A DNA stretch of 41,420 nucleotides, taken from positions 1-41,420 of the forward strand of contig JBMYYT010000002.1 in NCBI GenBank assembly GCA_049609665.1, written 5' to 3'. The notes beneath the pieces were generated by a model. That model did not search any database, was not told the origin of the DNA, and worked only from the letters and a program-made list of their open reading frames with translations. The DNA is from Flavobacteriales bacterium (GTDB lineage Bacteria > Bacteroidota > Bacteroidia > Flavobacteriales_D > CAJJDF01). A program made the translations under genes and the position numbers. Below are positions 9,222 through 39,285 of the stretch, in pieces; within the stretch, counting starts at the first letter, position 1; every line of letters starts with the position of its first letter.

Positions 9222-9613
9222 TTACCTCCATAAAGTTTAAATCCGCTGTAAATCAATTTAAATGCTATTAATAACATAATAATTCCAAATATTATTTTAA
9301 CCAGATTTTCATCCACTTTATGAGCTAATTTTGCTCCAAAAAAACCTCCTACAATAAATGTAGCAGCAACAATTCCTGCAACTTTTAAGTCCACATTACC
9401 TTCTTTATAATAATGCATAAATGCCAATATTCCAATTGGAGGTAACATCAACGCCAAACTGGTTCCCTGCGCTTGCAATTGTGTTAATCCAATTAAATAG
9501 ATTAAACCGGGAACAATAATAATTCCTCCACCAATTCCAATGAATCCTGATAAAATTCCAGCGGTTATTCCAATTAGAATTAAATAAATAATAGTTTGAA
9601 AATCGAGTATCAT
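9218..9613 (-). CDS. TauE/SafE (TSUP) family membrane protein, short form
   Basis: GILSGFIGIGGGIIIVP and AQGTSL motifs; about 4 TM segments. Confidence 0.85.
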   Translation of the reverse strand: MILDFQTIIYLILIGITAGILSGFIGIGGGIIIVPGLIYLIGLTQLQAQGTSLALMLPPIGILAFMHYYKEGNVDLKVAGIVAATFIVGGFFGAKLAHKVDENLVKIIFGIIMLLIAFKLIYSGFKLYGGK

Positions 9614-9627
9614 GAGTTTGTTTTTTC

Positions 9628-19051: not shown

Positions 19052-19618
19052 TTACTTCAATACCCAAGAACCACCGACACAAATCACATTGTTCAGATCC
19101 AAACATTCTTGAAAATTAGATTCATTTAGTCCTCCTGTTGGGCAAAATTTTACCTGTTCGAAAACTCCTCCATAAGTTTTTAAGGCTTTGATGCCTCCTG
19201 CTAAATTAAAAGGAAATAGCTTAAAAGTATCCCATCCTCTATTCAAGTTTGAAATAATTTCGGAGGGAGTCATTACTCCCGGGAGAAAAGGAATTTCTGC
19301 TTTATTAAAAGCTTCAGCAACTTCATCAGATACTCCTGGACTAACCATAAAATCCACTCCTAATTGAGCACATTCTTTAACTTGTGAGGCATTTACAATG
19401 GTTCCTACTCCTACTTTAAATCCTTTTGGCTTTAGTTCTATTGCTTTTGCAATAGCTTCCATAGCACATTCTGAACGTAAGGTAATTTCAATACAATTAA
19501 TCTCCTGTTGTATCAATCTATTCAAAATAGACTCCACCTCAGATAAATCAGTGATATTTACTACTGGGATTATTGAATGCTCTGCTAATAATTTTCTTAT
19601 TCCAAATTGTGATTCCAT
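19052..19618 (-). CDS. eda: KDPG/KHG aldolase
   Basis: IEITLR, GVGT, FMVSPG, PGVMTPSE, KLFP (Schiff-base Lys), FCPTGG, VGGSW. Confidence 0.96.
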   Translation of the reverse strand: MESQFGIRKLLAEHSIIPVVNITDLSEVESILNRLIQQEINCIEITLRSECAMEAIAKAIELKPKGFKVGVGTIVNASQVKECAQLGVDFMVSPGVSDEVAEAFNKAEIPFLPGVMTPSEIISNLNRGWDTFKLFPFNLAGGIKALKTYGGVFEQVKFCPTGGLNESNFQECLDLNNVICVGGSWVLK

Positions 19619-19621
19619 AGC

Positions 19622-21415
19622 TTAAAAAATTGTTGCTCCAGTTTCACTGGTGGAAATTAAAGCTCTTACATTATCAAATAATTCTCGTCCAGTACCATTT
19701 TTACGTTTCGGAATTTTAACTGGCTCTCTTTTCGTTACTTCCTCTTCATTCAAGCAATTCAACTCACCCGTGTTGCAATCTAATTTTAACTCATCTCCAT
19801 CTCTTAAAAAAGGCAATAAGCCTCCATCCAATGCTTCTGGAGAAACATGAATAGCCGAAGGAACTTTTCCTGAAGCTCCCGACATTCTTCCATCCGTAAC
19901 TAACGCTACTTTAAATCCATTGTGTTGAAGAATACTTAAGGTTGGTGTTAATTTATGTAGTTCCGGCATTCCAAGCGCTTTAGGCCCTTGAAATCTTACA
20001 ACCACAATGCAATCTTTATTAAGCTTACCTGCTTTAAAAGCCTCTATAACATCATCCTGATCGTCAAAAACCATTGCTGGGGCTTCCACCACTCTATTCT
20101 CTTTTTTTACTGCAGAAACCTTACAAACGGCTTTCCCAATGTTTCCTCTAATTAATTTTATTCCGCCTTCTTCATCGAATGGAGATTTTACAGAAGAAAT
20201 TACCTCTTTGTCCAGCGATTCTTTTGGACCTTCTTTAAAAAATAATTCATTTTCTTTTAAAAAAGGTTCATTGATATAATTCTTTAATCCTTTGCCCACA
20301 ACAGTTGTTACATCCTCATGAAGCAAGTCGTTTTCTAACAAAGTTCTCATTACGTAGGACATTCCTCCAGCAGCATGAAAGTGATTAATATCGGCCTTCC
20401 CATTAGGATATACTTTGGTAATGGAAGGAATTACTTTGGATAGGTCTGAAAAATCTTCCCAATCAATTAGTATTCCTGCAGATTTGGCAATAGCAACCAT
20501 GTGCATAGTGTGGTTAGTAGAACCACCTGTTGCTAACAAACCTATCAATCCATTTACAATACTCTTTTCGTCAATAATCTGATAAAGAGGGATTTTATTT
20601 TCCTCATCAATATTTCGTATCAATTGTTTTACTGCTTCATCAGTTAGTGCGTCTCTCAGAGGAGTTTTTGTGTTGACAAATGAAGAACCCGGCAAATGTA
20701 ATCCCATGATTTCCATGAGCATTTGATTGCTGTTTGCAGTACCATAAAAAGTACATGTTCCGGCTGAGTGGTAAGAGGCTGATTCTCCCTTTAATAATTC
20801 TTCTCGAGAAATTATACCATTGGCATAATCTTGTCTTATTCTTGCTTTCTCGTCATTGGAAATCCCTGTTTCCATAGGACCTCCTGGAACAAATACCGTG
20901 GGTAAATGACCAAACTTAAGTGCACCAATCAATAATCCAGGAACTATCTTATCACAAATCCCAAGGCATAGTGTCCCATCAAACATATTGTGAGAAAGAG
21001 CAATTACCGCAGACATAGCAATAACATCCCTACTCAATAATGACAATTCCATACCGGCTTGACCTTGAGTAACTCCATCACACATTGCCGGAACTCCTCC
21101 TGCAAATTGAGCTACAGCACCATTTTCTTGTGCTGTTTTTCTAATCTGATCCGGATAAGTCTCGTAGGTTTTGTGCGCAGATAACATATCATTGAAAGAA
21201 GAAATTATAGCCAAATTAGGCGTTTTAACTCCTGATAACTCTGTTTTTTCATGGTCATTGCATGCAGCAAAAGCATGAGCTAAATTCCCGCAAGATAGTG
21301 CTGCTCTTGAACGACCTTTTTCTTCCGCTTCTTTCATTTGAATTAAATAAGCCGAACGAGTCTTTGAACTCCTTTCGATAATTCGATTCGTAACCTCAAT
21401 AATCGTTTTATTCAT
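19622..21415 (-). CDS. edd: 6-phosphogluconate dehydratase
   Basis: VTNRIIERS, CGNLAHAFAAC, NDMLSAH, CDGVTQG, CDKIVPG, GMPELHKLTP, TDGRMSGASGKVP. Confidence 0.97.
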   Translation of the reverse strand: MNKTIIEVTNRIIERSSKTRSAYLIQMKEAEEKGRSRAALSCGNLAHAFAACNDHEKTELSGVKTPNLAIISSFNDMLSAHKTYETYPDQIRKTAQENGAVAQFAGGVPAMCDGVTQGQAGMELSLLSRDVIAMSAVIALSHNMFDGTLCLGICDKIVPGLLIGALKFGHLPTVFVPGGPMETGISNDEKARIRQDYANGIISREELLKGESASYHSAGTCTFYGTANSNQMLMEIMGLHLPGSSFVNTKTPLRDALTDEAVKQLIRNIDEENKIPLYQIIDEKSIVNGLIGLLATGGSTNHTMHMVAIAKSAGILIDWEDFSDLSKVIPSITKVYPNGKADINHFHAAGGMSYVMRTLLENDLLHEDVTTVVGKGLKNYINEPFLKENELFFKEGPKESLDKEVISSVKSPFDEEGGIKLIRGNIGKAVCKVSAVKKENRVVEAPAMVFDDQDDVIEAFKAGKLNKDCIVVVRFQGPKALGMPELHKLTPTLSILQHNGFKVALVTDGRMSGASGKVPSAIHVSPEALDGGLLPFLRDGDELKLDCNTGELNCLNEEEVTKREPVKIPKRKNGTGRELFDNVRALISTSETGATIF

Positions 21416-21425
21416 GTTTTATAAT

Positions 21426-22109
21426 TTAGGGTGCCCAATATAAAATTGGTTCAATTCCTCTATCATTCAATATTGTATCGATAGGAAGTTGATCATTTCG
21501 CTCTTCGTTTTTGATAATTTCAAGTTTGGATTCTCCTGTTATAAAAATAATCAAATGGTTTGCCTTTCTCAAATAATTCCAACTGTGTGAAATTCGTTTG
21601 TGAGGATAATCAGGTGCTTTAGTATAAATTAAATTTGAATCCGATATAAGTGATAACCCCAGAGCTGAATTTTTATCGTTTGGAAATAGTGAAGCGAAAT
21701 GTCCATCGCCTCCCATTCCAAGTATTACGATATCAGGATTGCCAATCGATTGAACTGATTCTAATGCATCATCCATATTTGATGACTCTTCTTCGGGATT
21801 GAAAACCAAAGGATAAAATGCTGGTGGAGTACTTTTAATATTTTTAATAAAAAAATTTCTTAGTAATAAAGCATTGGAATATTGGTCTTCATGATTTACC
21901 ATCCTGTCATCTACCAATCCTATTTTTACTTTGCTCCAATCTATGTTGGCTTTTGCTAATTTCGCAAAAAGTCCTTTTGGAGTTGAACCTCCTGACAACA
22001 ATATACTTGCAGAATCATTTTTTGATATACTGTAAGTTAAAGCATCAATTATATAAGCGGATAAATCAGCTTCTAAATTCTCTTTTGATTTAAATTTCAG
22101 AGTTTTCAT
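21426..22109 (-). CDS. pgl: 6-phosphogluconolactonase (DevB type)
   Basis: LSGGSTP, VDDR, LGMGGDGHFASLFP. Start placed at ATG 22109 because of the ATGA overlap with the zwf stop (track start 22136). Confidence 0.93.
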   Translation of the reverse strand: MKTLKFKSKENLEADLSAYIIDALTYSISKNDSASILLSGGSTPKGLFAKLAKANIDWSKVKIGLVDDRMVNHEDQYSNALLLRNFFIKNIKSTPPAFYPLVFNPEEESSNMDDALESVQSIGNPDIVILGMGGDGHFASLFPNDKNSALGLSLISDSNLIYTKAPDYPHKRISHSWNYLRKANHLIIFITGESKLEIIKNEERNDQLPIDTILNDRGIEPILYWAP

Positions 22110-23566
22110 AGCGAATCTTCTTTTGATTGATACCAACTATGTTCTGGATTTAAAACCTCATCTCCAGGCCCCCAAGATCCTGCTTTGTAGAGCTCAAGCT
22201 CTTGATTCGTTTTTTTCCAATTTTGAGTAATTGAATTAATCCATTTCCAAGATGCTCTCACTTCATCCTCACGCATAAATAGAGTTTGATTTCCTCTGAT
22301 TACATCCATCAATAATCTTTCATAAGCATCTGGAAAACGCTTCTCAAAAGAACCACCATAATCCAATTCCAGTGAAGTAGGCTTGTATCTATATCCTCCA
22401 GGCCCTGGAATTTTTGCCATTTGTACCAGCTCAATTCTTTCTTCGGGTTGAAGTCTTATAATTAGTTTATTTCGATCTATCTTTTTTCCAGAAGGGAAAA
22501 TATTATGAGGAACTCTTTTGAAGTTTATAATAATCTCCGAGAATCTTCTTTTCATTCTTTTTCCTGTTCTCAGGTAAAAAGGAACTCCTGTCCACCTCCA
22601 ATTGTCTACATAAGTTTTAAGAGCCACAAAAGTCTCCGTAGACGAATCATAAGTGTCTATATCTTCTTGGTAGGATTGGACGTGCTTATCGTCAATTTCT
22701 CCACGTGTATATTGACCTCTAACAGTTGATTTAACAATTGAATTTGAATCGAAAGGTCTAAGAGCTTTCAATACTTTTAATTTTTCATCTCTTACGTTGT
22801 CAGCGTTTAATTTTGCTGGTGGTTCCATTGCTACCAAACATAATAGTTGTAACAAATGGTTTTGAACCATATCTTTCAAAGCTCCGAATTTATCGTAGTA
22901 ACCTTTTCTGGAACCCACACCTAAAGATTCTGCAACGGTAATCTGGACATTATCTATATTTTTTGCGTCCCAAGCTAATTCAAATAAGTGATTGGCAAAT
23001 CGAAGAACCATTAAATTTTGAACTGTTTCTTTGCCTAAATAATGATCAATTCTGTATATCTGAGTTTCGTTAAAATATTCCCTAACTTCCGTATTCAGTT
23101 GTTCAAAAGATTTCAAATCTGAACCTAAAGGTTTTTCCAATACAACTTTCGATTCGCTATTGATAATATCGTTTTCGGAAAGAAATTTTGAAATAATACC
23201 GAAAAGGAAAGAAGGTGTGGAATAATAAAAAACGTTTTGGTTGGATTTACTTTTTGCTAATTCCTCTCCCAAGTTTATATAATCTTCATTTTGAGTTAAA
23301 TCCATTTTAAAATAGGACACCATTCCCTTGATTTTTTTCACAATTAAATCTTCTAATTCAGGAACATGAAGAGTTAAATGTTCTTTTAATTGGTTAAAAA
23401 AAGAAGGAGTATCCAATGGATTTTTTGAAACCACAATAATCTTTGTCTCAGTAGTGATTTGATTATCTTCGATCCGATAATAAAGTGCTGGGAAAATCTT
23501 TCTTAAAGCCAGATCACCATCACCACCAAAGATTACAATATTTGCGTTTTTTAAAGTTTTATTCAT
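22106..23566 (-). CDS. zwf: Glucose-6-phosphate 1-dehydrogenase
   Basis: IFGGDGDL, EKPLG, RIDHYLGKE, DMVQNH, RWTGVPFYLRTGK, AYERL. Likely start ATG 23566 (track start 23620 lies inside the promoter/operator). Confidence 0.97.
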   Translation of the reverse strand: MNKTLKNANIVIFGGDGDLALRKIFPALYYRIEDNQITTETKIIVVSKNPLDTPSFFNQLKEHLTLHVPELEDLIVKKIKGMVSYFKMDLTQNEDYINLGEELAKSKSNQNVFYYSTPSFLFGIISKFLSENDIINSESKVVLEKPLGSDLKSFEQLNTEVREYFNETQIYRIDHYLGKETVQNLMVLRFANHLFELAWDAKNIDNVQITVAESLGVGSRKGYYDKFGALKDMVQNHLLQLLCLVAMEPPAKLNADNVRDEKLKVLKALRPFDSNSIVKSTVRGQYTRGEIDDKHVQSYQEDIDTYDSSTETFVALKTYVDNWRWTGVPFYLRTGKRMKRRFSEIIINFKRVPHNIFPSGKKIDRNKLIIRLQPEERIELVQMAKIPGPGGYRYKPTSLELDYGGSFEKRFPDAYERLLMDVIRGNQTLFMREDEVRASWKWINSITQNWKKTNQELELYKAGSWGPGDEVLNPEHSWYQSKEDSL

Positions 23567-23577
23567 AACGGTTAAAA

Positions 23578-23585
23578 CAAATATA
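23578..23585 (-). promoter_or_regulatory. Putative sigma-A -7 element of the zwf-pgl-edd-eda operon
   Basis: Minus strand reads TATATTTG (TAnnTTTG); a TTG lies about 22 nt upstream, inside the operator palindrome. Confidence 0.55.
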
Positions 23586-23592
23586 CAAATAG

Positions 23593-23613
23593 TTATTGTA
23601 AAAAATACAATAA
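23593..23613. promoter_or_regulatory. NrtR/AraR-type operator upstream of zwf
   Basis: Palindrome with perfect 7-bp arms, TTATTGT-AAAAAAT-ACAATAA; GT-N7-AC core typical of NrtR-family sites. Confidence 0.8.
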
Positions 23614-23641
23614 GACACAAGAAATCACTGAAATTCGAACT

Positions 23642-24514
23642 CTACCCTAACTGCTTAACAGTTTGGTTGTCAGAATGAAATTCCGTTAACTCTTCAATAG
23701 GACAGCGTGTAATTTTTTTTATGCTCATACCGTATTCACTTGCTACTTCCTTTAGTATTTCATCATAATAAAAGGCTATAGATCCTACGAAGCCTAACTC
23801 ATAACTATTGAAGTTAGGGTAAGGTACGATTCTTACTTCAAAGAAATTCTTAAATCCTTTATAGATTATATCTCTAAGTACCTTATGATGAAGATTTGCA
23901 TGGTAGAAATAAGCAAAGCTTGCTAAGAAAACATTCGGGCTACTTTCTTTATAGGTGGTATTAAGAATTTGATCCTTTGACAATTTAAACTCATTTTCAA
24001 ATGACTTTTTTAACTCGTCATCCATTTTGTCACTTAAGTAGAGTTTTAATAATTCTATTCCCAAATGGGAACCACTTCCTTCGTCTCCAAAAATATATCC
24101 ATGAGAAGCAATATTGGCTTTCTCTTCAGAGTCCTCCCAAACACATGAGTTAGCTCCAGTACCTAAAATACAAGCTATTCCATCGCCATTGCCTAATGTA
24201 GCTCTTGCTGCTGCAATCATGTCATGATTTACATATATTCTTGCTTTTAAAAATTGAGGTTGCAGTCCATTTTTAACGACTGTGGTTCTTTCAGTAGAAG
24301 AACAACCTGCACCATAATAATGTATTTCAGTTACCTTATCCAAATCCAGTTTTGATTTAGAAAAAGATTTAAATATCTCGTTAAAGATAAATTCAGCTGT
24401 TTGAAAATATGGGTTAAATCCTATCGTCTTTATTTTTTCTACAATTTCAGAATTTGAATCAATAATTACCCAATCCGTTTTGGTAGAACCGCTATCTGCT
24501 ATTACTTTATACAT
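23642..24514 (-). CDS. BadF/BadG/BcrA/BcrD (ASKHA) family sugar kinase, N-acetylglucosamine-kinase-like; probable glucokinase in this context
   Basis: ADSGSTKTDW, YYGAGC, ACILGTGANS, GYIFGDEGSG, FVGSIA. Confidence 0.85.
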   Translation of the reverse strand: MYKVIADSGSTKTDWVIIDSNSEIVEKIKTIGFNPYFQTAEFIFNEIFKSFSKSKLDLDKVTEIHYYGAGCSSTERTTVVKNGLQPQFLKARIYVNHDMIAAARATLGNGDGIACILGTGANSCVWEDSEEKANIASHGYIFGDEGSGSHLGIELLKLYLSDKMDDELKKSFENEFKLSKDQILNTTYKESSPNVFLASFAYFYHANLHHKVLRDIIYKGFKNFFEVRIVPYPNFNSYELGFVGSIAFYYDEILKEVASEYGMSIKKITRCPIEELTEFHSDNQTVKQLG

Positions 24515-24516
24515 AG

Positions 24517-25780
24517 TTATATTACTTTAAATGGAATATTACCAGTGGCTACATTCCCATTTCCATCATGAACAAAAAGAAATAATCTATACTCCCCTTT
24601 ACCAGGAGTTTTAAAAGTTACTTTATTTTTGTTCTTATCCGTTTTATTAAAAATTCCTCTTACGGGTTTTGGAGACTTCTCTGCATCTCCACCTGTTTTT
24701 TTATCTGTACTTTCAGGAATAATCATCCATTCATAAATTAAGTTATCCTTGTCTTTATCTTCAATAATAACTGAAGCCTTCATTTCCGAATTCTCCTTGA
24801 TTTTAATATTATCCTTAGATGTCTTCTCGTTTATTCTAAACTTATCAATTGAAGGAGCAAAATTATTTGGATCTTTATTGCTCCAGTTTTTTATCAACAC
24901 ATCCATAACCTGAGTTTCATCTCCAGCCTCTGTAAACAAACCAAACCAAGTAGAGGTGTGTTCTTGCTTTTGTCCCCAAAGAAAAACATAAGAACCAAGA
25001 CAATTAACCGAATCGGAAGTAATTGCCTTGATGCTTTTTTCGTATGTTTCTGCTTTCTCGGTACTATTCTGTTCAATAGATGCTCCCCATTCTGTCTTTT
25101 GTACTTCCCACCAACCATAAGGTCCCCATTCAGCTACTACATAAGGTTTTTTTCCAACCATATACTTTTATAGCTTCAGGTAAATATGAAATATCCCCGT
25201 ATGTATTAACACCTAAAATATCCAGACTTGGCGTATGTTTATTGATTAATTTTACTTCTGCCACATCCAATCCTGCTGTTACAGCCATTGTAGGGTGATT
25301 AGGGTCCTCTTCGTGAATCATTTTGACTAATTCTTCCAAATACTTCCAAACATCGAAGTTGGTGTAATCCAAATCCATTTCATTTCCAACTCCCCAAAGT
25401 AGAATAGCTGGATGATTTTTGTATTTTCTCACCACTCTTCTAAACTCTTCAACTTGAGCCTTGATTGCTCCTTCATTGGAGTAATCAAATCCTTGTCGCT
25501 CCTGCCCCATCCAAATGCCAAATGTCACAGTAATTCCATTTTTATGAGCTTCTTCAAGAATCGCATCTGTTTCTGGACTTATTCCCCAAGTACGTATTGA
25601 ATTTCCGCCATAACTTTTCAACTTTTCAAGCTCCACTGTTCCTCCCGCTCCTTTGATGTAATAGGGCTTACCGTCCTTTAGCAATTGAAATCCATTCTCC
25701 GTAGTCTTTACTTCTACTTTTGAAGCAAAGGCACCTAAGAAAACAAGGTTTAATATAATATATGTAACTATTTTTTTCAT
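24517..25780 (-). pseudogene. Clan GH-A glycoside hydrolase (GH2 TIM-barrel/GH158-like), split by a +1 frameshift at an A7 tract (25147-25153)
   Basis: ORF 25130-25780 has a signal peptide, NSIRTWG and WGVGNEM (acid/base). ORF 24517-25161 has PYVVAEWGP (nucleophile), GSYVFLWG and an Ig-like tail. Deleting one A joins them as ...YGWKKPYVVAEWG... Confidence 0.8.
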
Positions 25781-26580
25781 TTATTCTGGTAAACTTTTAC
25801 GTAATCTACTTCCATAAATTTAGCTGTTCTTAACCCAGCATTATCTACGTTTCCACCTAAATTACCTCCTACTGCAACATTTAACAATAGATGAAATTCA
25901 GCATCAAAAGGCCAAGTAGCACTTACTTGTGAATTGGTTCTTAACACTTGAAAAGACTGAACATCATCCAAAAACCAAGTAATTTTATTTGCGTCCCATT
26001 CAATAGTATATTTATGAAACAAATTATCATACACAATGGGTTCCAAATCCCCTAATTGCCTTCTGTTTCCTAAATTATCAGCAAAATGAATCGTATTGAA
26101 TATTTCACTTGATCTGTTTCCTACAAACTCCATAATGTCGATTTCTCCACTTATTGGCCAGCCTTCACTTGGATTAGTTGGCAACATCCAGAAAGCATGC
26201 CATAGTCCTCCCGAGTTTGACATTCGCATAGAAGCTTCAATTTTTCCATATTTAAAGTCTCCCTTATTCAAAGATCTGATTCTGCCAGAAGTAAAATCCA
26301 AACCTCCAAAACTTTCGGCAATAGCTCCAATTTTTAAGGTACCAGAAGAAACAGATACATTGTTTTCTCTGTAATATTGTTCTTCGTTATTTCCCCATCT
26401 GTACAATCCATAACGAGATCCGTCCCCGATCATATGTTCCCATTTGGAGAGATCTAAACTTGTGCCATTAAAATTATCTTCCCATACCAAGTCATACTTA
26501 GTAACAAGTGGGTCGCTTTGCCTGCAATTATTAAAAAGAATAATTGCAAGTAAAACAGCAAATAATGATTTAATAGCCAT
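25777..26580 (-). CDS. GH16 endo-beta-1,3-glucanase (laminarinase-like) lipoprotein
   Basis: GEIDIME catalytic motif, WGNNEEQYY, FTSGRI, WHAFWML, LLNVAVGG, MEVDYVKVY. Lipoprotein signal ending FNNC from ATG 26580. Confidence 0.92.
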   Translation of the reverse strand: MAIKSLFAVLLAIILFNNCRQSDPLVTKYDLVWEDNFNGTSLDLSKWEHMIGDGSRYGLYRWGNNEEQYYRENNVSVSSGTLKIGAIAESFGGLDFTSGRIRSLNKGDFKYGKIEASMRMSNSGGLWHAFWMLPTNPSEGWPISGEIDIMEFVGNRSSEIFNTIHFADNLGNRRQLGDLEPIVYDNLFHKYTIEWDANKITWFLDDVQSFQVLRTNSQVSATWPFDAEFHLLLNVAVGGNLGGNVDNAGLRTAKFMEVDYVKVYQNK

Positions 26581-26606
26581 TGAAATAACTTTATTGAATA
26601 AGTAAT

Positions 26607-26623
26607 AGCCAACCTTGTTGGCC
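26607..26623 (-). terminator. Short intergenic hairpin (possible weak terminator or mRNA stabiliser)
   Basis: Minus strand GGCCAAC-AAG-GTTGGCT followed by ATTACTTATT. Confidence 0.35.
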
Positions 26624-26646
26624 ATCACTTAAATATAGGTTAAATA

Positions 26647-30432: not shown

Positions 30433-32697
30433 TTATTTGACTAAAAAATCTCTTTTTATCCCATTAATTTCAAGTTGAAACCCTCCAGTTTCGAGCTCCC
30501 AAGTATTGGATACTCCTACAAAAGCTAATTCTGAAACTGGAATCCTAAATTCAATTTTCTTTGTTGAATTTGCTGAAAGGTTAACTTTTCTGAAGCCTCT
30601 TAATCTTTTAACGCTCGGTGTTATAGAGGCTACTTTGTCACTAATATATACCTGAACAACCTCCTTACCTTCTCTATTAGATGTGTTTTTTATTTCCAAT
30701 GAAACTTTAATTGTATCGGATTTTGAATATTCAAGTTTATCAATATTTACTTCATCATAATTAAAATTTGAATAACTCATACCAAAACCAAATTCCCATT
30801 GTGGATTAAAAGCCTTCTTACCGAAATTGATATCAAAAACTTCAGTGTACTTATGGTCGTATTGGATAAATGAACCCGTAAACCTTGGATAGGTGAAAGG
30901 TATTTTCCCTGATGGATTAGACCCACCAAAAAGAATTTTAGCTAATGCTTCTCCTCCAAAATCTCCTGGCAGGTAACAATGAAGAATCGCATCCGCATTA
31001 GGTACAATCTCATTTATTATCCTTGGTCGGTTAAATGTCAATGTAAAAACTATTGGCTTATTTAATTTACTCAATTCCTTCACTAATCGTTGTTGAGCTT
31101 TTGGCAAAGTTAAATCTTCAATATTTCCTGGAATTTCTGTACATGGAAGTTCTCCCAAGCACACAATTATCACATCAGATTTTTTGGCTTTTTCAATAGT
31201 CTCCTCGAGATTTTTTAAACTATCTAAGCCTGAACCTAAAGAAAACTCTACTTTTCCTTTGGAAATTTGTTTAATAGCCTCATAATAAGTTTTTGCTCCC
31301 TTGGTATTGTAGGTTGGATCAACACCTTGCCAAGTATGAGTCCAAGCACCATTTTGAATGTTTAACGAATTAGCTGCTGGACCGCAAATTAGAATGTTAG
31401 CCTCTTTTTTAAGTGGCAAAACATTATTTTCATTCTTAAGGAGAGTAATTGATTCCAATGCAGTATTCAAAGCAGTTTCTTTGAATTCTTTGGAAGCAAA
31501 CTTCGTGTATCTTGCAAAATCTGGAATTGGATTTTTTAATAGACCCAATTGTTTTTTGACCCAAAGTATCCTTCTGCAAGATTCATCTAATCTACTTTCT
31601 TTGACCTCCCCGCTTTTGACTAAATCGATAAGCGCTTTATTAAAAGAATAATCATTTGGAGTCATACTCATATCAATTCCAGCATTAACCGCAAGCTTCA
31701 CTGCTTCTCGCATATCTTTTGCAACATTATGGTTTTTATACAATTTAATAATGTCTTCCCAATCCGTTACAGCAAGTCCTTTAAACCCTAATTCGTCTCT
31801 CAATAATTTTGTAAGAAGATCAGGATTTGCATGAACAGGAATTCCATTTATCTCTCCAGAATTAATCATTACCGTCAACGCATTTTCCTTAATTGCAGTT
31901 TCAAAAGTTGGTAGATAATATTCTCTAAGTTGTCTTTTTGGAATCCAAACTGGTGTTCTGTCTTTTCCAGACAACGGTGTGCTGTAGCCCAAAAAATGTT
32001 TCATACAAGAAGCTACTTTTTCAGGATTTGAAGGGTCATTACCCTGATACCCAATAATACAAGCCTCTGTCATTTGTTTTGCCAAATAAACATCTTCTCC
32101 ATACGTTTCAAAGAACCTTGACCAAAGCGGCTGACGCCCAATATCCAATACAGGTGAAAAGTTCCAAGGAATTCCTGAAGCTCTACATTCATAGGCTGTT
32201 ATCGAAGCTCCTTCTTTTACTAACTCTAGATTCCATGTTGCAGCCTGTCCTATTTGTTGTGGAAATAATGTTGCATCCACAGTATAATTTACTCCATGAA
32301 TAGCGTCAATCCCGTATATAATTGGAATTTTATTTCCTTCAGTAGTAGCTTTCGTTTGAATTTGAGTGATAATTTCTTGCCAATGTGCTCTGGTATAGGT
32401 GTGACCACCAACATTAAGTATTGATCCCACAAAGTAATGATTAATCGCAGAATCCAGCTTTTTTGAATCTAACTGATGGGGCTTTTCGAGGTTGTAAATT
32501 TCTCCTTTGGAAATAACATCAATATTAATTTGAGTCATCTGCCCAACCTTTTGCTCAATGGTCATTTTTGAAATAATCGCTTCAATTTCTGAATCAACTA
32601 TTTGAGGAATTGAGGTTGAATTTTTTATAGTATTACAAGAAAAAAAGAATAAAAATAATCCCAAGAACAGGGTTAATTGCTTTTTGATTTTCATCAT
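30433..32697 (-). CDS. GH3 beta-glucosidase (BglX-like) lipoprotein
   Basis: GIDAIHG, WSRFFETYGED, MKHF, VTDW nucleophile, NPSGKIP, Fn3 domain GKEVVQVY...LRGF; lipobox FFSC. Confidence 0.94.
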   Translation of the reverse strand: MMKIKKQLTLFLGLFLFFFSCNTIKNSTSIPQIVDSEIEAIISKMTIEQKVGQMTQINIDVISKGEIYNLEKPHQLDSKKLDSAINHYFVGSILNVGGHTYTRAHWQEIITQIQTKATTEGNKIPIIYGIDAIHGVNYTVDATLFPQQIGQAATWNLELVKEGASITAYECRASGIPWNFSPVLDIGRQPLWSRFFETYGEDVYLAKQMTEACIIGYQGNDPSNPEKVASCMKHFLGYSTPLSGKDRTPVWIPKRQLREYYLPTFETAIKENALTVMINSGEINGIPVHANPDLLTKLLRDELGFKGLAVTDWEDIIKLYKNHNVAKDMREAVKLAVNAGIDMSMTPNDYSFNKALIDLVKSGEVKESRLDESCRRILWVKKQLGLLKNPIPDFARYTKFASKEFKETALNTALESITLLKNENNVLPLKKEANILICGPAANSLNIQNGAWTHTWQGVDPTYNTKGAKTYYEAIKQISKGKVEFSLGSGLDSLKNLEETIEKAKKSDVIIVCLGELPCTEIPGNIEDLTLPKAQQRLVKELSKLNKPIVFTLTFNRPRIINEIVPNADAILHCYLPGDFGGEALAKILFGGSNPSGKIPFTYPRFTGSFIQYDHKYTEVFDINFGKKAFNPQWEFGFGMSYSNFNYDEVNIDKLEYSKSDTIKVSLEIKNTSNREGKEVVQVYISDKVASITPSVKRLRGFRKVNLSANSTKKIEFRIPVSELAFVGVSNTWELETGGFQLEINGIKRDFLVK

Positions 32698-33830
32698 TTA
32701 GTGATTTTAATTTCATCAATAAAAACTTCCCCTTTCGAGGTTCCTTCAAAATAAATTTGCTTAATTCTGTCTAAAGCAAATTTCTTATCTCCGAGATTTA
32801 GATTTTTAAGAGGAATAGATATTTTTGACCAGTCATCCGAATTAATTTTTTGAGATTTGTGCGAGAAAATTTCCGTTTTGTGCCCTAAATAGTCTTCAAG
32901 TATTACTTTAAATTGACTTCCTTTTTTGGCCTTCACATTAAACCTAATGGTAGACTCTTCAGAAACTCCTCGTAAATTTACGGCATACCATCCATTCCAA
33001 TTCATTCCCCATTTTGCCCAAGAGCAATCCTTTGCATCGTATTTCCAGTGAATATATTTGTCTCCTTCTCCATTTGCTTTTTCCGATAGTTCTTGACATC
33101 TGTTATTCTCATATCCCCATACATCTTCTTTGAAATTCCCTTCCCGATAAACAATTTGATTGAACTTTCCCTTTGGTCTCATTTTTTCAACCTCAGCTCG
33201 AGATTTAGCATATTCTTCTTTTGAATAACTTACTATTTCAATTTCATCCAAATAAAACGAACCTGCTCCTTCGAGTTGAAATTGCATTTGTTTTATGGAG
33301 TTAATATCTACCTCTTCTTCATCAATAGGGAAATGCCATAAAGGAACAACAATTCTTTTCCAAGTTGTATCTATTTCGAGTCCATATAAATATTTTCCCG
33401 CATCTATAAAATAGTAACTTCCTCCACCTCCAAAGTCTTCTAAATTAGCTACAATTGGAATTGCTTTTGCAGTTTTAGATTGAGTTCTTACATAAAAAGA
33501 CAATGCTTTTTTGAATCTTTCTTGAGATAAATCAACGGGTTGCCAGTTATTGAAACTATTTCCAAATCCAATCCATTCGCAATTTCCTTTGTTCCAAGAA
33601 AGCTTGATACTTGATTTTCCTTTAAAAGCTACTTTATCACTTATCTCAAAATCTCCACAATCAAATAAAGAATTCCACATCGTTCCTACTCCATCCGAAA
33701 ATACGACTTGATCACCCTGAACTGTTGGAGGATGAACTTCATATTTATCATACAAAACCTGTTCTTTGAATTTGACACTTTCGCAAGCAAATAAAGCAAC
33801 TAAAAATGTTATGAAAATTAAATTTTTCAA
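32694..33830 (-). CDS. Lipoprotein with two CBM-like (galactose-binding-like) domains; putative glycan-binding protein
   Basis: TTG start overlapping the upstream TGA; lipobox LFAC; internal duplication (W.G.G..FN.W..V.L ... W..I..PL ... I.Q..F.....G..(Y/F).DEI.I) seen twice. Confidence 0.65.
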   Translation of the reverse strand: MKNLIFITFLVALFACESVKFKEQVLYDKYEVHPPTVQGDQVVFSDGVGTMWNSLFDCGDFEISDKVAFKGKSSIKLSWNKGNCEWIGFGNSFNNWQPVDLSQERFKKALSFYVRTQSKTAKAIPIVANLEDFGGGGSYYFIDAGKYLYGLEIDTTWKRIVVPLWHFPIDEEEVDINSIKQMQFQLEGAGSFYLDEIEIVSYSKEEYAKSRAEVEKMRPKGKFNQIVYREGNFKEDVWGYENNRCQELSEKANGEGDKYIHWKYDAKDCSWAKWGMNWNGWYAVNLRGVSEESTIRFNVKAKKGSQFKVILEDYLGHKTEIFSHKSQKINSDDWSKISIPLKNLNLGDKKFALDRIKQIYFEGTSKGEVFIDEIKITK

Positions 33831-34831
33831 GGAGTGTAAGGAGTATTAGTAGTAAAAATTAAGTGATCTACGAAAGCCTTTGAATTCCCATTTGCCTTGT
33901 TAGCCAAATAAAATACGTTAATAGAAGCAAGCTTAGCAGGTTCAGGCAATCCATTTCCGTTTGTAGAAACTTGATTTCCATCCGCATCAAATTGAATATC
34001 AGAGTATTTGAAACTTACCAAGTTCCAACCCGTATCGGTGTACCAATATTCATAAATAAATCTATCTTCGGTTGCTTCGTCAAAAGTTCCGTCTCCATTT
34101 TCATCTTCATCAAACCAAAATTGGATAAATGCATTTCCTTCACCAATATTCTCAATAGGTTTAAATGCCATATTGAAAAATAAATTTGAAGCACTTGCTG
34201 GTAGTCCGAAATTACTTGAAGCGTTGGGTTGAATCATAACCGAACCAATTGCCCAGTCCCATGGTACATTTCCGTTCCAGCTATAATGACAATTCCCTTT
34301 GGCAGACTCACCGCTTCCACAATCAATTGCTCCTGCAACCGTAGTTTGGTTAAACTTTGACCAGTTCGCTCCTTCTCCATTTTCAAAACTCGTAATTAGG
34401 TAACCATTGTCAACTTTTATCCCAGAAATAGTAACGGTATCATAAAGAACAGGTGTTCCATCTTCATCAGGAAAATTGATTTCAATGTAGGCTTTTTCCA
34501 ATCCAAAACCAGGAAAAGAATTTGCTCCTCCATCCCAAGAAGAATTGTCAATTGAGATAATTCTATCCGTTCCAGAAATAAACCTTTTAGCACCCGTATT
34601 TGCTCCAACTATTGAAATATTCCATTTGGTGTTTTTTGACAATTCACCATTAAAATAAAGTTTATTATCAACTGGAAAATCAACCAGATTTTTATTGATT
34701 TCAACGTCTTTAATAATACTAAAAGGTCCGAATAAATCATTTAAGTCTGGACCATCAAATGTCGTGTCATCTTCTTTTCTACAGGATAGAATAAGTAAGA
34801 TTGAGATTAAAATAAAAACTGTCTTTTTCAT
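33827..34831 (-). CDS. Surface lipoprotein with C-terminal CBM-like domain; putative glycan-binding protein
   Basis: Lipobox ILSC followed by RKEDD (K-D/E-rich, like the Bacteroidota lipoprotein export signal); C-terminal LITSFE...GWNLVSFKY...VDHLIF jelly-roll-like pattern, Trp-rich. Confidence 0.6.
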   Translation of the reverse strand: MKKTVFILISILLILSCRKEDDTTFDGPDLNDLFGPFSIIKDVEINKNLVDFPVDNKLYFNGELSKNTKWNISIVGANTGAKRFISGTDRIISIDNSSWDGGANSFPGFGLEKAYIEINFPDEDGTPVLYDTVTISGIKVDNGYLITSFENGEGANWSKFNQTTVAGAIDCGSGESAKGNCHYSWNGNVPWDWAIGSVMIQPNASSNFGLPASASNLFFNMAFKPIENIGEGNAFIQFWFDEDENGDGTFDEATEDRFIYEYWYTDTGWNLVSFKYSDIQFDADGNQVSTNGNGLPEPAKLASINVFYLANKANGNSKAFVDHLIFTTNTPYTP

Positions 34832-34833
34832 AA

Positions 34834-36546
34834 TTAAAAGAATAAAGAATATAAAAATGTGAACTGAGAAATCCCATAATCCACTGAATTACTTGTTTGG
34901 TGTTTGATACTATTCACCTGATATTGTGCAGATAATATGTTCTTATCAGAGAATCTATACCTCAATCCTACTGCATAAGTATTTTCACTAAAATCATAAG
35001 AAACGATATCAAAATTTTCAATTGAGTTAAAAGCATTCCGTTCATTGATGTAAGCATTTCCATCAACTGCCCATAGCTTTGCTCCCAATAGAAAATCTAA
35101 TTTACGAAGAAATTCAATGGAAAGTCCAGCATCAATTAAAGTGCTATTTAGGTCAACGGTTTCGAACTCTTCCCCTTTTCTTGATGTGTTCTCGTACCTT
35201 ACTCCCAAATCTAATTTGAATTGTTTTTTCCAACCCAAAAAGTCACTAAAGTAGATGTCAGTTCCAGCCTCTACCAATATAAAATTCTTCTTGACATTGG
35301 TTCCCGTACCTCTGGATTGGGTCATGTAAGAGGCATTCAAAAAAGTATTTTTAAACTTAGTGGTATCCGATTTAATCATTTTTAAATAAACTCCTTTCCT
35401 ATTTGGAGTTGCAAGTCCATAAGGATTTATGTTGTCGTATGCTGGATTATAATCCATTAATTCTTCTGAGATTTTAAACGAATTTTCAGTGTTTCCGCTA
35501 ATAACATCTGAGTAACTGATAGGTCTTCCAGTAGCATTATTGGTTATTTGCTGATACAAACCTGGAAATTTACCATAGTTGATTCGTTTCGTTTGAGCAC
35601 CAGGTGATAAAAAATCTGCTCCTACATCCTTATATCCGATTTCAAAACTTAGTCGTTTATCCTTTAATTCTGTAACAAAAGAGACATCGTAAAACCAATC
35701 ATTTATGGATTCAGGAGCTCTTGAATCCTGATAATTGATATACTGAGTGCCTGATGTTCCTGCCTCAGATTTAAGACCAATTTTAAGATTATCGTTTAAT
35801 TCTCTGTTGTAAAAAAGGTTAACTGTGTGCACATTATTTTTGTACTGAATGCTATCTGGAATTGTTTCTTTAAGGTCAAACACATTAACACTATTAAAAG
35901 CCAAAGACAGATTTTCACTTTGGCGAATTGAAATTGTTCCCCCTCCATACAATCTTTCTGGCTCAGCAATTCCATCTGTAGGTCTTTGTCTTGTTATGAA
36001 TCCTTTAAAATCCATTCCTTCGATTACATTGCCGAATTCTAACCCAAAATTCATTTTTGCACCCTGCATTCGCCAGTTGTTGTCATTATAAAACATATCA
36101 TAATGAACAATATCTCTCCTCAAGGCAAATACATCTCCCTCATTTACAATTCCCTCTTCTTGTTGATTAAATAAAGTGTAAGGTGTCATTTTCAAATCAA
36201 TATCACCCACTTCGTAACGCACCAAATCTCCTGCAACACCTTTTACCGTTAATTGTCGAACATCAAATGAAACTCCACCTCCCCAAAATCCACCGAGCTC
36301 ATTTCGGATACGAAACATTCCTAATACCTCGGTGTTCTTGTTGGGAAAAATACTTACTCCTAAATCAAGTAAAGTATGACCATAATTAGCTTTTCTTGTT
36401 GTAATTGAATCCAACGATTCATCGATATTTAGCTCATTTGAGAACATATACGCCCTTGCAGCTCCATTGATTTGAAACTTTTTTTGTTGACCAAAAGCAA
36501 AATTCGTCAACACAACAATAAGTATGAATATAATTTTTTGTTTCAT
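34834..36546 (-). CDS. Uncharacterised outer-membrane beta-barrel-like protein (barrel B)
   Basis: Cleavable signal peptide, alternating amphipathic strands throughout (DLGVRYE, DAGLSIEF, AVGLRYRF), C-terminal FTFLYSLFF; no TonB plug motifs seen. Confidence 0.7.
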   Translation of the reverse strand: MKQKIIFILIVVLTNFAFGQQKKFQINGAARAYMFSNELNIDESLDSITTRKANYGHTLLDLGVSIFPNKNTEVLGMFRIRNELGGFWGGGVSFDVRQLTVKGVAGDLVRYEVGDIDLKMTPYTLFNQQEEGIVNEGDVFALRRDIVHYDMFYNDNNWRMQGAKMNFGLEFGNVIEGMDFKGFITRQRPTDGIAEPERLYGGGTISIRQSENLSLAFNSVNVFDLKETIPDSIQYKNNVHTVNLFYNRELNDNLKIGLKSEAGTSGTQYINYQDSRAPESINDWFYDVSFVTELKDKRLSFEIGYKDVGADFLSPGAQTKRINYGKFPGLYQQITNNATGRPISYSDVISGNTENSFKISEELMDYNPAYDNINPYGLATPNRKGVYLKMIKSDTTKFKNTFLNASYMTQSRGTGTNVKKNFILVEAGTDIYFSDFLGWKKQFKLDLGVRYENTSRKGEEFETVDLNSTLIDAGLSIEFLRKLDFLLGAKLWAVDGNAYINERNAFNSIENFDIVSYDFSENTYAVGLRYRFSDKNILSAQYQVNSIKHQTSNSVDYGISQFTFLYSLFF

Positions 36547-38471
36547 TAGAAAATGATTTTTATTTCAAGTGTGGTTTCATGCCCAGCGTACTTGTCAAGA
36601 GCAAAATTCCTGTCCTCAAATTTGAAGTATCGATGTCTCAAGTATAAAGCTGTGTTCTTAGACATCATATAGTCAAACCCTAATCCAAAGGCAATTCCTT
36701 CTTGATTTCTTGGTCTTTCTGTGAGAATATCAACTTCCGTGTCGTAGTTTGCGATAGCTCTTTCCCAACCTACATACTGGGATAAAACAACTTTTTTGTG
36801 AATTTTGTAATAACTCTCCAATTGGTGAGAATAATAGCGAATATATGCGTCTTCTGTAAACACCGTAATTGGAGAAAACTTGGTTTGAACTGAGTTATAG
36901 GAACCTAAATAAAACACATGCCATGGTTTTCCAAAAAAGTTAAACTTATACTTAACCTGAGCTTCAATGTTATTGAAATACTTATCATTTACAACCTCTC
37001 CCGTTTCCGATAAATCATTCAAATTCAATGTCTCAAAAACATTTCGAAACAATACCGATGTTCTGTCATACGGACCAACATTGGCAGGAAAACTCCACCT
37101 CCAAAACCTTGACATAGTTAATCCATTAATAGCATGTCCATAGGTAATTGAATTGTTTTTGTTTTCAATTTCCTTTGCTATTCCATTTCCTATTGAAATT
37201 ATTGCATCGTCAATTTTAAATTCCGTATTTATATTTAACCCTTGGCGGTTATTTGCCATTTGTCCCATGCCCAGCATGGCACTCCCGTTTTGTTGAAGAA
37301 CACCATTCGCTCCAATGATTGTTTGAGCTCCAGCCGCAGCTGATGTAGCTTCAATTACTGAGGTATTCACGAATTCCACGTTATTGTTCACCACATTTGG
37401 ATTTATTCTGAAATAATGTAATTCAATAGGGATTTTGGTTAATTTTTTATCCAAATTAACCTTTAATGAAACCATTTCGCCTATACCCAAATCTTTATAG
37501 ACATCTTTGTAATGACCTCCCCCTATTTCTCCAGAAATTTTCATTTTATCAAAAACAAAATTAAATTCCGTAGTCAATATTCTATTTTCAATGGGATCCA
37601 ATGCCAACTCATCAGAATAAGTTCTTCTGTTAAAAGAATTAAGACTTACAGAATGTTTCTTGAATACTTTTTTGATACTTCCCGCAACAACATTGTTGGG
37701 TATTGTATTATCATAAAACTTAATAAATGAGTTATTGGTTGAATCACTTGAAACGTTTGCCGGGTCAACAAATGCCGAACCTGCATTTTGAGTTTTTCCG
37801 TATAGCATGTTGAATGACAAACCAAATGGAAGTTCAGTGATATCCAAAATCAACCCTTGAACAGCTTGTTGAGCCCATCTTGTATCTTGAGATATTGCAC
37901 CGTTTTTGTAATAATCCTCGTAACGTTTATTGATATCCTTGAATTGAGGATCCCAAGGGTTTCTGTCAAAAACGCTGTATCTATTATATCCTGCAAACGA
38001 CCGCATTGTAAATGGCGTCATGCTGTGCCAATGTATTCCTCCCGCTTTTACTCCAATGTTAGCAACTTTTGTTTTGAAATTTCCATACAGATTAATCCCC
38101 AATTGTAAATTTCTGTAATAATTGAAATTTCCATCGTTTTGATTCCAAACAACCAAATCCGTTCCAAATGAAGTTCCTGGAGATGGATTTCCTCCCATAT
38201 TTAACGTTAATTCAGGAAGTTGTGAGGCATCTCCAATAAGGAGTGATCTATTACTCAAATAAACAGGCTCATCATTTACAATATCAAATGCAAAAGGGTC
38301 AGTAAACATCCTGTGTTGAGCAAAAAACCTGTAGTTTCCTCCGATATTGAAACCTTTGAGTGGTGCTTTTTTTACTAAAGAGTCTTGAGATATGCCGATT
38401 ACGGAGATTAGTGAAAATAAAATTGTCACTCCGAAATTTAAATTATTTCGTTTGCTTGATTTCTTTTTCAT
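36546..38471 (-). CDS. Uncharacterised outer-membrane beta-barrel-like protein (barrel A)
   Basis: Likely start ATG 38471 (track start 38525); signal peptide; amphipathic strands (GLGFDYMM, ALYLRHRYF); C-terminal TLEIKIIF; TAATG overlap with barrel B. Confidence 0.7.
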   Translation of the reverse strand: MKKKSSKRNNLNFGVTILFSLISVIGISQDSLVKKAPLKGFNIGGNYRFFAQHRMFTDPFAFDIVNDEPVYLSNRSLLIGDASQLPELTLNMGGNPSPGTSFGTDLVVWNQNDGNFNYYRNLQLGINLYGNFKTKVANIGVKAGGIHWHSMTPFTMRSFAGYNRYSVFDRNPWDPQFKDINKRYEDYYKNGAISQDTRWAQQAVQGLILDITELPFGLSFNMLYGKTQNAGSAFVDPANVSSDSTNNSFIKFYDNTIPNNVVAGSIKKVFKKHSVSLNSFNRRTYSDELALDPIENRILTTEFNFVFDKMKISGEIGGGHYKDVYKDLGIGEMVSLKVNLDKKLTKIPIELHYFRINPNVVNNNVEFVNTSVIEATSAAAGAQTIIGANGVLQQNGSAMLGMGQMANNRQGLNINTEFKIDDAIISIGNGIAKEIENKNNSITYGHAINGLTMSRFWRWSFPANVGPYDRTSVLFRNVFETLNLNDLSETGEVVNDKYFNNIEAQVKYKFNFFGKPWHVFYLGSYNSVQTKFSPITVFTEDAYIRYYSHQLESYYKIHKKVVLSQYVGWERAIANYDTEVDILTERPRNQEGIAFGLGFDYMMSKNTALYLRHRYFKFEDRNFALDKYAGHETTLEIKIIF

Positions 38472-38535
38472 TGCTAAAAGCAAGAAAAATAAACAAATAG
38501 TTATTAGGGCAAATGATAAAGTCAAAATCAGCTAA

Positions 38536-38592: not shown

Positions 38593-39285
38593 CTAAACTT
38601 CAAAGTTGAAGCCTCCTTTTTTGAGTATTTCATATCTCTTCTCGTCAAACTCATAAAGCTTCGCAGGACGATGAGAAACGTTTTCTTGAAGATTTCCAGT
38701 CTCTCTTAAAAACTTCATTTGAAGAATTTTTTTTCTAAAATTTCTAATGTCCATTTTTACTCCAAGAATAGCTTCATACAACATTTGCAATTCCGTGAGA
38801 GTAAAATGCGGAGGCAAAAGCTCAAAACCGATTGGCATTGTTCTTACTTTTCTTTTCAGCCTATTTACACAGGATAACAAAATTTTGTCGTGGTCAAAAG
38901 CTAAATCTTTTACATTGTTCACCTTAAACCATTTAGCTTTTGAAGCGAAAGAAGAAGGACTTAATTCATAATCATCTATTTTAACTAAAGTAAAATATCC
39001 TGTTGTAAGCACTCGTCCTAAAGGGTGTCTTTGAATTTCTCCAAAAGTTTCTACTTGCTCAAAATAAAGATTACTCAACCCTGTAAGATCTTTAAGAATT
39101 CTGTTGACAGAAGCATTTAAGTCTTCATCAGGGCTCATTAAATCTCCTGGCAAAGCCCAAAAATCCTTAAATGGAATTTCTCCTCTTTCAATTAAAAGAA
39201 CCTTCAAATCAACACCATCGAATCCAAAAACCACACAATCAATGGAAACTGCAAGAGTAAAATATTTTTTTAAACTATCCTTCAA
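38593..39285 (-). CDS. NrtR/AraR-family transcriptional regulator (Nudix domain plus winged helix)
   Basis: SIDCVVFGFD, WALPG, EQVETFG..RHP.GRV, LAFDH, FTLTELQ.LYEAILG, DIRNFRKK, HRPAKLY; TTG start. Confidence 0.93.
   Translation of the reverse strand: MKDSLKKYFTLAVSIDCVVFGFDGVDLKVLLIERGEIPFKDFWALPGDLMSPDEDLNASVNRILKDLTGLSNLYFEQVETFGEIQRHPLGRVLTTGYFTLVKIDDYELSPSSFASKAKWFKVNNVKDLAFDHDKILLSCVNRLKRKVRTMPIGFELLPPHFTLTELQMLYEAILGVKMDIRNFRKKILQMKFLRETGNLQENVSHRPAKLYEFDEKRYEILKKGGFNFEV

Follow-up and report, generated by a model that had tools for sequence, protein, structure and literature searches.

Glycan use by the Bacteroidota is usually equated with the SusC/SusD pair, and the loci are found through that pair. 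A system of another kind is known from one organism, Cytophaga hutchinsonii. According to the study that describes it (PMC12016534), chu_1276 and chu_1277 specify proteins of the outer membrane, CHU_1276 being a predicted barrel with matches to TonB-dependent transporters (TBDTs); CHU_1278 is a bimodular β-sandwich; CHU_1279 has 375 residues and two domains resembling carbohydrate-binding modules (CBMs), where residues Y253, F256 and F343 are important to binding; and the product of chu_1280 is an endoglucanase. The same text leaves unresolved the role of chu_1276-1280 in SusCD-independent cellulose use. An operon now tied to this cluster by homology lies on a 41,420-nucleotide stretch from an uncultured Flavobacteriales bacterium (contig JBMYYT010000002.1, positions 1 to 41,420; hereafter the window). 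It is headed by genes for two outer-membrane β-barrels, A and B, followed by genes for two lipoproteins, Lp1 and Lp2. Together these four probably make up one module, akin to the first four genes of chu_1276-1280, for capture and entry at the outer membrane in an operon that uses β-1,3-glucan (laminarin) independently of SusCD.

A cluster of the same layout was found in a single-contig genome (G532:C1, locus L095). Its genes, all in one direction, encode a 747-residue A-type protein, a 606-residue B-type protein, a 380-residue lipoprotein, a 375-residue protein and a glycoside hydrolase of family 9 (GH9; other families are abbreviated likewise) with a CelD_N domain. One source lists under the name Cytophaga hutchinsonii ATCC 33406 a protein to which the first of these is 100% identical, and the 375-residue protein has Y, F and F exactly at 253, 256 and 343. 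In BLASTP, A aligns with the first protein (L095:6242-8485) at 28% identity over 591 residues (E 7e-61), and B with the second (L095:8501-10321) at 34% identity over 544 residues (E 1e-89). Lp1 aligns with the third (L095:10342-11484) in two colinear segments (E 1e-7 and 2e-6), and the hidden Markov model (HMM) of Lp1 matches that gene at E 2e-32. The cluster fits chu_1276-1280 as the paper describes it, the assignment of CHU_1276 coming from cluster position and from that description. The original prediction had named the Cytophaga module and suggested homology to CHU_1276/CHU_1277; the link is confirmed because of the BLASTP matches of A and B, the three binding residues and the ATCC 33406 identity.

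Gene order and orientation agree between the two clusters, with two barrels first, then a lipoprotein, a bimodular CBM-like protein and a glycoside hydrolase. CHU_1279 and Lp2 each have a pair of CBM-like domains and are almost equally long (375 and 378 residues), with marginal sequence similarity, whereas A is about 100 residues shorter than its C. hutchinsonii counterpart. The hosts differ, an uncultured marine lineage labelled Flavobacteriales, with no SusD found, against a cellulolytic soil bacterium, as do the regulators, of the NrtR/Nudix type in the window and a sigma factor of the ECF (extracytoplasmic-function) type in C. hutchinsonii (PMC12016534). The enzymes differ as well. GH3, GH16 and GH2_C-like genes, of the β-1,3-glucan type, stand in the window where chu_1276-1280 has GH9. 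Judged by family, this gene content supports a setting among β-1,3-glucan-type enzymes, not GH9, for the window copy, and agrees with the earlier suggestion that the module has been redeployed for β-1,3-glucan.

On profile evidence A and B are old, real paralogues across the whole barrel, because broad profiles of the two families align in hhalign with a probability of 98.2% whereas reversed controls stay near chance. The broad profiles consist of the narrow family sets plus distant members (158 A-type and 84 B-type sequences), with no cross-contamination between A and B in either set. Their alignment has an E-value of 4.6e-14 and a score of 121.8 and runs over 488 columns, A 38-629 against B 21-558; every listed match of the reversed profiles scores only 16-21 (P 0.18-0.5). 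The narrow alignments, of 47 A and 48 B sequences, gave a probability of 11.6%, or 34.6% with a score of 41.4 when the first sequence was used as master, against scores of 18.6-27.0 for 14 optimised controls (2 reversed and 12 block-shuffled). At a low maximum-accuracy (MAC) threshold the narrow alignment is colinear over 480 columns, with the three motif pairs singled out in the original prediction all opposite each other. The real alignment pairs 35 columns that are at least 90% conserved and have the same residue in A and B families; the controls pair 5-23 such columns. The three motifs and the pair FETLNL/FETVDL all fall in aligned columns of the profile alignments. The distant paralogy that the original prediction had seen in these motifs is thus borne out by profile-profile comparison, though simpler searches see nothing: pairwise BLASTP of A against B finds no similarity (best E 0.53), and in their own genome neither family HMM matches the other gene at E<=10.

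A, B and Lp1 are an obligate unit. In species genomes the A profile found 51 loci, all in metagenome-assembled genomes (MAGs) or single-cell genomes, most of them labelled Flavobacteriales, Crocinitomicaceae or Cryomorphaceae. In 45 of the 51 the gene after A is B, and the other six contigs end at or within 330 nucleotides after A. Wherever there is room Lp1 and Lp2 come next, followed by GH3 and/or GH16 and the GH2_C-like gene. Where both barrel genes are complete, A and B overlap by one nucleotide in 27 of 39 loci, the rest having gaps of 0-15 nucleotides (start codons are heuristic). Against 1.84 billion representative sequences the A profile has 310 matches at E<=1e-3, 129 of them at E<=1e-30. 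A phylum-wide sample had A in only 3 of 400 other genomes, each with the order A-B-Lp1-Lp2 and with GH16 and the GH2_C-like gene, two of the three with GH3; one of these carriers belongs to another class and has a high GC content. Of 401 genomes in the order to which a Cytophagales-labelled MAG belongs, 65 have A, many of them in two to five copies. These wider searches gave 41 loci, in which B follows A in 38 while the other three are cut by contig ends, and an Lp1-like gene follows B in all 20-kb loci.

In the few loci whose neighbouring genes were scanned, the enzymes beside paralogous modules vary: GH16 in L096, GH10 and GH3 in L099, GH9 in L095 and L100, GH3 in L101, and GH10, an esterase, a GH78-like gene and CE2 in L098. 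One contig (G439:C1) carries three A-B-Lp1 modules (L096, L097 and L098) with different neighbours each, L097 having a weak Glyco_hydro_cc match and a protein sorted through type IX secretion (T9SS), and L098 two Lp1-like genes in tandem. The B-type gene of the GH10/GH3 module (L099:8509-10297, G595) is split into overlapping frames, 8509-9954 and 9902-10297, by either a frameshift or a pseudogene event. Modules at 66-67% identity to A were also met in two MAGs labelled Gammaproteobacteria and Comamonadaceae (L018 and L028), a placement most likely due to binning errors rather than gene transfer.

The features of the window are collected in Table 1. Translation of the reading frames and coordinate arithmetic reproduced the ORF ends, the terminal Phe, the TAATG overlap and the motif positions of the original prediction. 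The C-termini are ...LEIKIIF in A and ...FLYSLFF in B, with Phe last in both. The junction reads ttcTAATGaaa, so that one base is common to the stop codon of A and the start codon of B. An alternative start for A is a TTG, with which the frame would span 36546..38525 (-). Both N-termini run from a basic stretch through a hydrophobic one to Gln, and the signal peptides expected there, read by eye rather than with a predictor, are matched by N-terminal helices in the structural models (A 11-27, B 2-21). In the family alignments N408, R409 and G411 of A and N382, R383 and G385 of B are invariant or nearly so.

Table 1. Features of the window around the A-B pair, with positions in the 41,420-nucleotide stretch
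Feature	Position	Strand	Basis or remark
Nudix/NrtR-type winged-helix regulator, directly upstream of A	38593..39285	(-)	NrtR_WHD E 6.6e-28, AraR_C, NUDIX
A, predicted outer-membrane β-barrel without plug, 641 aa	36546..38471	(-)	open reading frame (ORF) from ATG
A motif MTPFTM (residues 151-156), where long loop L3 begins	38004..38021	(-)	aligned with B MTPYTL
A motif NRQG (residues 408-411), where long loop L7 ends	37239..37250	(-)	aligned with B NRKG
TAATG stop/start overlap coupling A to B	36544..36548	(-)	seen in sequence
B, predicted outer-membrane β-barrel, 570 aa, 22 DSSP strands	34834..36546	(-)	ORF
B motif MTPYTL, residues 120-125	36172-36189	(-)	aligned with A MTPFTM
B motif NRKG, residues 382-385	35392-35403	(-)	aligned with A NRQG
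Lp1, lipoprotein, 334 aa, LSC-RKEDD, third module gene	33827..34831	(-)	follows B in every 20-kb locus
Lp2, lipoprotein, 378 aa, two tandem CBM-like domains	32694..33830	(-)	Pfam CBM30 E 7.9e-13
GH3 β-glucosidase-type lipoprotein	30433..32697	(-)	Pfam GH3 N-terminal, C-terminal, Fn3-like
Two T9SS-sorted surface proteins, 461 and 778 aa	26647..30381	(-)	Por_Secre_tail; CBM_4_9 in the second
GH16 endo-glucanase-type lipoprotein	25777..26628	(-)	Glyco_hydro_16 E 1.1e-24; N-terminus ...LFNNC-RQSD
GH2_C-like TIM-barrel glycosidase, frameshift-split	24517..25780	(-)	two overlapping frames, A7 run near 25150
BadF-type sugar kinase, zwf, pgl, edd, eda	19052..24514	(-)	Pfam; glucose to Entner-Doudoroff

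As the original prediction had it, A and B have the architecture of β-barrels. The AlphaFold2 (AF2) models of both are all-β (A: pLDDT 77.8, pTM 0.77; B: pLDDT 74.6, pTM 0.71, 22 DSSP strands), and their structural matches lie in the large-barrel class. The strands of B are joined by turns of 2-10 residues on one side and by loops on the other, with L3 and L7 reaching 45 and 74 residues. The motifs noticed in the original prediction flank L3 and close L7, and these two loops hold most of the residues invariant in the A family alignment, many of them aromatic. Between the signal peptide and the first strand there are about 10 residues in A and about 4 in B, which leaves no room for a plug at either N-terminus. 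A Plug (PF07715) or TonB-box domain was found in none of the 47 A-family and 48 B-family members scanned. The Pfam match of the two, and the only one of A, is OMP_b-brl (PF13505), with 24.2 bits for A and 20.9 for B, below the gathering cut-off of 28.7 and over the C-terminal ~130-150 residues only; it is matched at E<=10 by 24 of 47 A-family and 28 of 48 B-family members.

Structural comparison bears on the idea that A and B are degenerate SusC-type TBDTs, with the plug and energy coupling supplied in trans. In a structure search (VIA) the best match of A was the barrel part of SusC BT1762 (Z 14.0), with TBDT barrels at Z 12-13; B matched OpdQ in part with Z 16.8, and along its whole length TBDT barrels with Z 13-14. 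Among whole-length matches the best are plug-less TBDT/SusC barrels (Z 12-14, 365-400 residues, root-mean-square deviation 4.0-4.7), as that idea would have it. Ushers and porins reach the same Z, however, and since the scores are flat over all large barrels they identify the fold class only. Searches of PDB sequences with the A and B profiles returned chance-level matches only, so that no sequence similarity to any PDB chain accompanies the structural one, and Foldseek against the PDB, a comparison proposed at the outset, returned generic barrels (TM 0.13-0.42). With no Plug domain, no N-terminal extension and no SusD match in the genome, a degenerate SusC-type transporter of this sort is very improbable.

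Among described families, DUF6029 (PF19494) is nearest to A and B by language-model features (0.97). It was rejected as their family: HMMER finds no match at E<=10 in the 47 and 48 members, and hhalign against the DUF6029 protein of the same genome is no better than the reversed control. That protein is a 562-residue barrel (E 1.4e-175 to PF19494) whose gene is followed by one for a 299-residue lipoprotein (G000:C41:1343-3969, L052), a pair with no detectable relation to A or B. An N-terminal CBM_4_9 domain precedes the barrel in four of ten longer A-family proteins (P0274, P0283, P0278 and L097:6089-8464), in the position that the plug occupies in a TBDT. With the topology usual for barrels, the domain would lie in the periplasm or in the lumen.

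The place of A and B in the operon is that of susCD, as had been noted: they come first, followed by two lipoproteins, GH3, T9SS proteins, GH16 and the GH2_C-like gene. The window was found to contain neither SusC nor SusD genes, and Lp1 and Lp2 are both without a SusD match in Pfam. Models for SusD_RagB (PF07980) and SusD-like_3 (PF14322) find no match in the genome itself, which is 88.65% complete and has 23 Plug-domain matches. Among 15 genomes of the same family (G000 and G802-G815), 13 of them of high quality, nine carry A and none has a SusD_RagB match; therefore the family seems to do without SusCD altogether.

The likeness to SusC/SusD, in its SusC2D2 form, is one of organisation. Both systems stand at the head of a glycan-degrading operon, have two large barrels per unit, of about 22 strands as predicted for A and B, are encoded alongside surface lipoproteins, and place a lipoprotein on the extracellular face of the barrel, as is predicted for Lp1 on B. 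Unlike SusC/SusD, A and B have no plug, no TonB box and no partner of the SusD fold. SusC forms a homodimer, whereas A and B are two different, paralogous genes, and transport by them would be passive. In this last respect the proposed mechanism resembles that of the sugar-specific porins (LamB, ScrY, chitoporin, CymA), namely TonB-independent, selective diffusion of oligosaccharides past inward-folding loops. Porins of this type have 14-18 strands. Profile searches of the PDB found no sequence relation of A or B to them and the structural matches are partial; in addition these porins are without dedicated lipoprotein partners, unlike A and B.

The lipoprotein Lp1 was chosen as a partner of B for complex prediction because it is conserved in all modules. 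B (residues 20-570) and Lp1 (17-334) were supplied each with its own alignment in three runs. The ipSAE interface scores were 0.71, 0.75 and 0.76 (median 0.75) against 0.00 in all three controls, with at least 95% of contacts in agreement between runs and a partner pLDDT of 85-87. Of 80 solved complexes 58 reach the mark for such scores, as do 2 of 110 mismatched pairs; with custom alignments, as used here, the counts are rough. In the predicted interface, the stretch of Lp1 right after the lipidated Cys (residues 17-36) contacts B at 307-310, 382-384, 411-417, 459-462 and 499-514, in loops L7-L10 on the long-loop, extracellular side. Conserved columns at the interface include G413, G415, T416, E462, R503 and N507 of B and C17 and G27 of Lp1. 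The model supports binding by B of the lipidated N-terminal segment of Lp1, which would dock on the barrel rim.

Such docking would also be expected if the barrels were platforms that anchor, export or stabilise Lp1, Lp2 and GH16, while sugars enter through general porins or TBDTs; the 23 Plug-domain matches show that other transporters exist in the genome. In C. hutchinsonii, growth is still rescued by CHU_1279 variants whose cellulose binding is impaired, and the paper that reports this (PMC12016534) speculates on a role in stabilisation or assembly. Against this, the same text reports a growth defect of the chu_1276 mutant on low glucose, which suggests transport; a plug-less 22-strand barrel is large for a mere anchor; and conservation peaks in L3 and L7, not at the rim. 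A role mainly as platforms is improbable.

The rest of the operon lies on the minus strand in tight order. The B/Lp1, Lp1/Lp2 and Lp2/GH3 junctions are a few bases apart or overlapping, and a homologue of the regulator stands upstream of A in most related loci. The C-RKEDD of Lp1 is taken here to be a lipoprotein export signal. The two domains of Lp2 form an internal repeat (36-201 against 220-378, hhalign 98.8%). A comparison of Lp1 with Lp2 gave 45.9% over 32 columns only, and neither shows hhalign similarity to the two T9SS proteins. The larger of these (26647-28983, -) has three near-identical modules of about 170 residues after CBM_4_9, each beginning ...LPVTFED.TVDYTMT.FGGN..., and is probably a multivalent glycan binder. 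The GH3 protein matches NCBIfam models for BglX and for exo-β-1,3/1,6-glucosidases, below their cut-offs. The GH2_C-like gene, perhaps of family GH158, is split by either an assembly error or a real pseudogene event; it is unbroken elsewhere, as one ORF of 422-463 residues in L062-L064 and in one frame in L009, L011 and L016. The gene directly upstream of A in L064 (13821-15512, G103) encodes a sodium:solute symporter (SSF E 6.8e-91), a candidate for the inner-membrane partner that the window operon is without.

The following route would account for this gene content. The T9SS-anchored CBM proteins and Lp2 would hold glucan at the cell surface, where the GH16 lipoprotein would cleave it. Gluco-oligosaccharides and glucose would then pass the outer membrane passively through the A and B barrels, whose pores may be narrowed by L3 and L7, long loops that are highly conserved and rich in aromatic residues. 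Hydrolysis would be completed by GH3 and the GH2_C-like enzyme, and glucose would be phosphorylated and enter the Entner-Doudoroff pathway encoded downstream. Lp1 would sit on the extracellular rim of B, held by the segment behind its lipidated Cys. A and B would most likely act as one assembly, a pseudo-symmetric pair like the two SusC subunits of SusC2D2. It is from anatomy and context that a passive channel, its substrate and contact between A and B are inferred.

The main rival to this route is that A and B are two independent passive channels of different selectivity, for example A for glucose and small sugars and B for oligosaccharides, which are co-expressed and do not associate. Each family has invariant residues of its own, and the sole pair in the complex prediction was Lp1 with B. 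Titles cited in PMC12016534 give CHU_1276 a place in glucose uptake and CHU_1277 one in the degradation of cellulose or cello-oligosaccharides; by analogy, separate roles of this kind could mean two jobs rather than one channel. On the other side, A and B are never apart in 83 loci with downstream room, the one-nucleotide stop/start overlap suggests matched production, and the duplication is older than the spread of the module to different glycans, as would be expected of an obligate heteromer. These points are not decisive, and independence of the two channels is unlikely, if the least so of the alternatives. Besides the CHU_1276 and CHU_1277 titles, three observations weigh against the reading as a capture-and-entry module. 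First, no inner-membrane sugar transporter was found in the window operon. Second, the topology of A resembles that of B with perhaps one hairpin more, and its strand number is uncertain, 22-24. Third, Lp2 aligns weakly in BLASTP with the fourth protein of the Cytophaga cluster (L095:11502-12629, E 0.003), and the Lp2 HMM has no match to that gene.

In the open-access literature, subscription papers being outside the scope, nothing was found on the A-B paralogy, on the spread of the module and its enzyme swaps, on its presence in a marine family without SusD matches or on the B-Lp1 model. A wider view is tentative and on balance rather doubtful: that A-B-Lp1 is a widespread TonB-independent alternative to SusCD in the Bacteroidota, a pseudo-symmetric, plug-less heterodimer combined with modular enzymes (GH16/GH3, GH10 and GH9 for laminarin, xylan and cellulose), and that it provides laminarin entry in a marine family whose genomes gave no SusD match. 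If this is true, each A/B barrel would be dressed with surface lipoproteins in a functional parallel to SusC2D2, and the cellulose system of C. hutchinsonii, long seen as an oddity, would be one specialised member of a class.

The A family extends far past three cellulolytic species. Surveys based on SusCD would miss loci such as this complete-looking operon of the laminarin type, and A and B together are usable as a marker pair for glycan loci without SusCD. C. hutchinsonii, as a tractable organism, could then serve to work out the mechanism, and the findings could be transferred to uncultured marine bacteria of high abundance.

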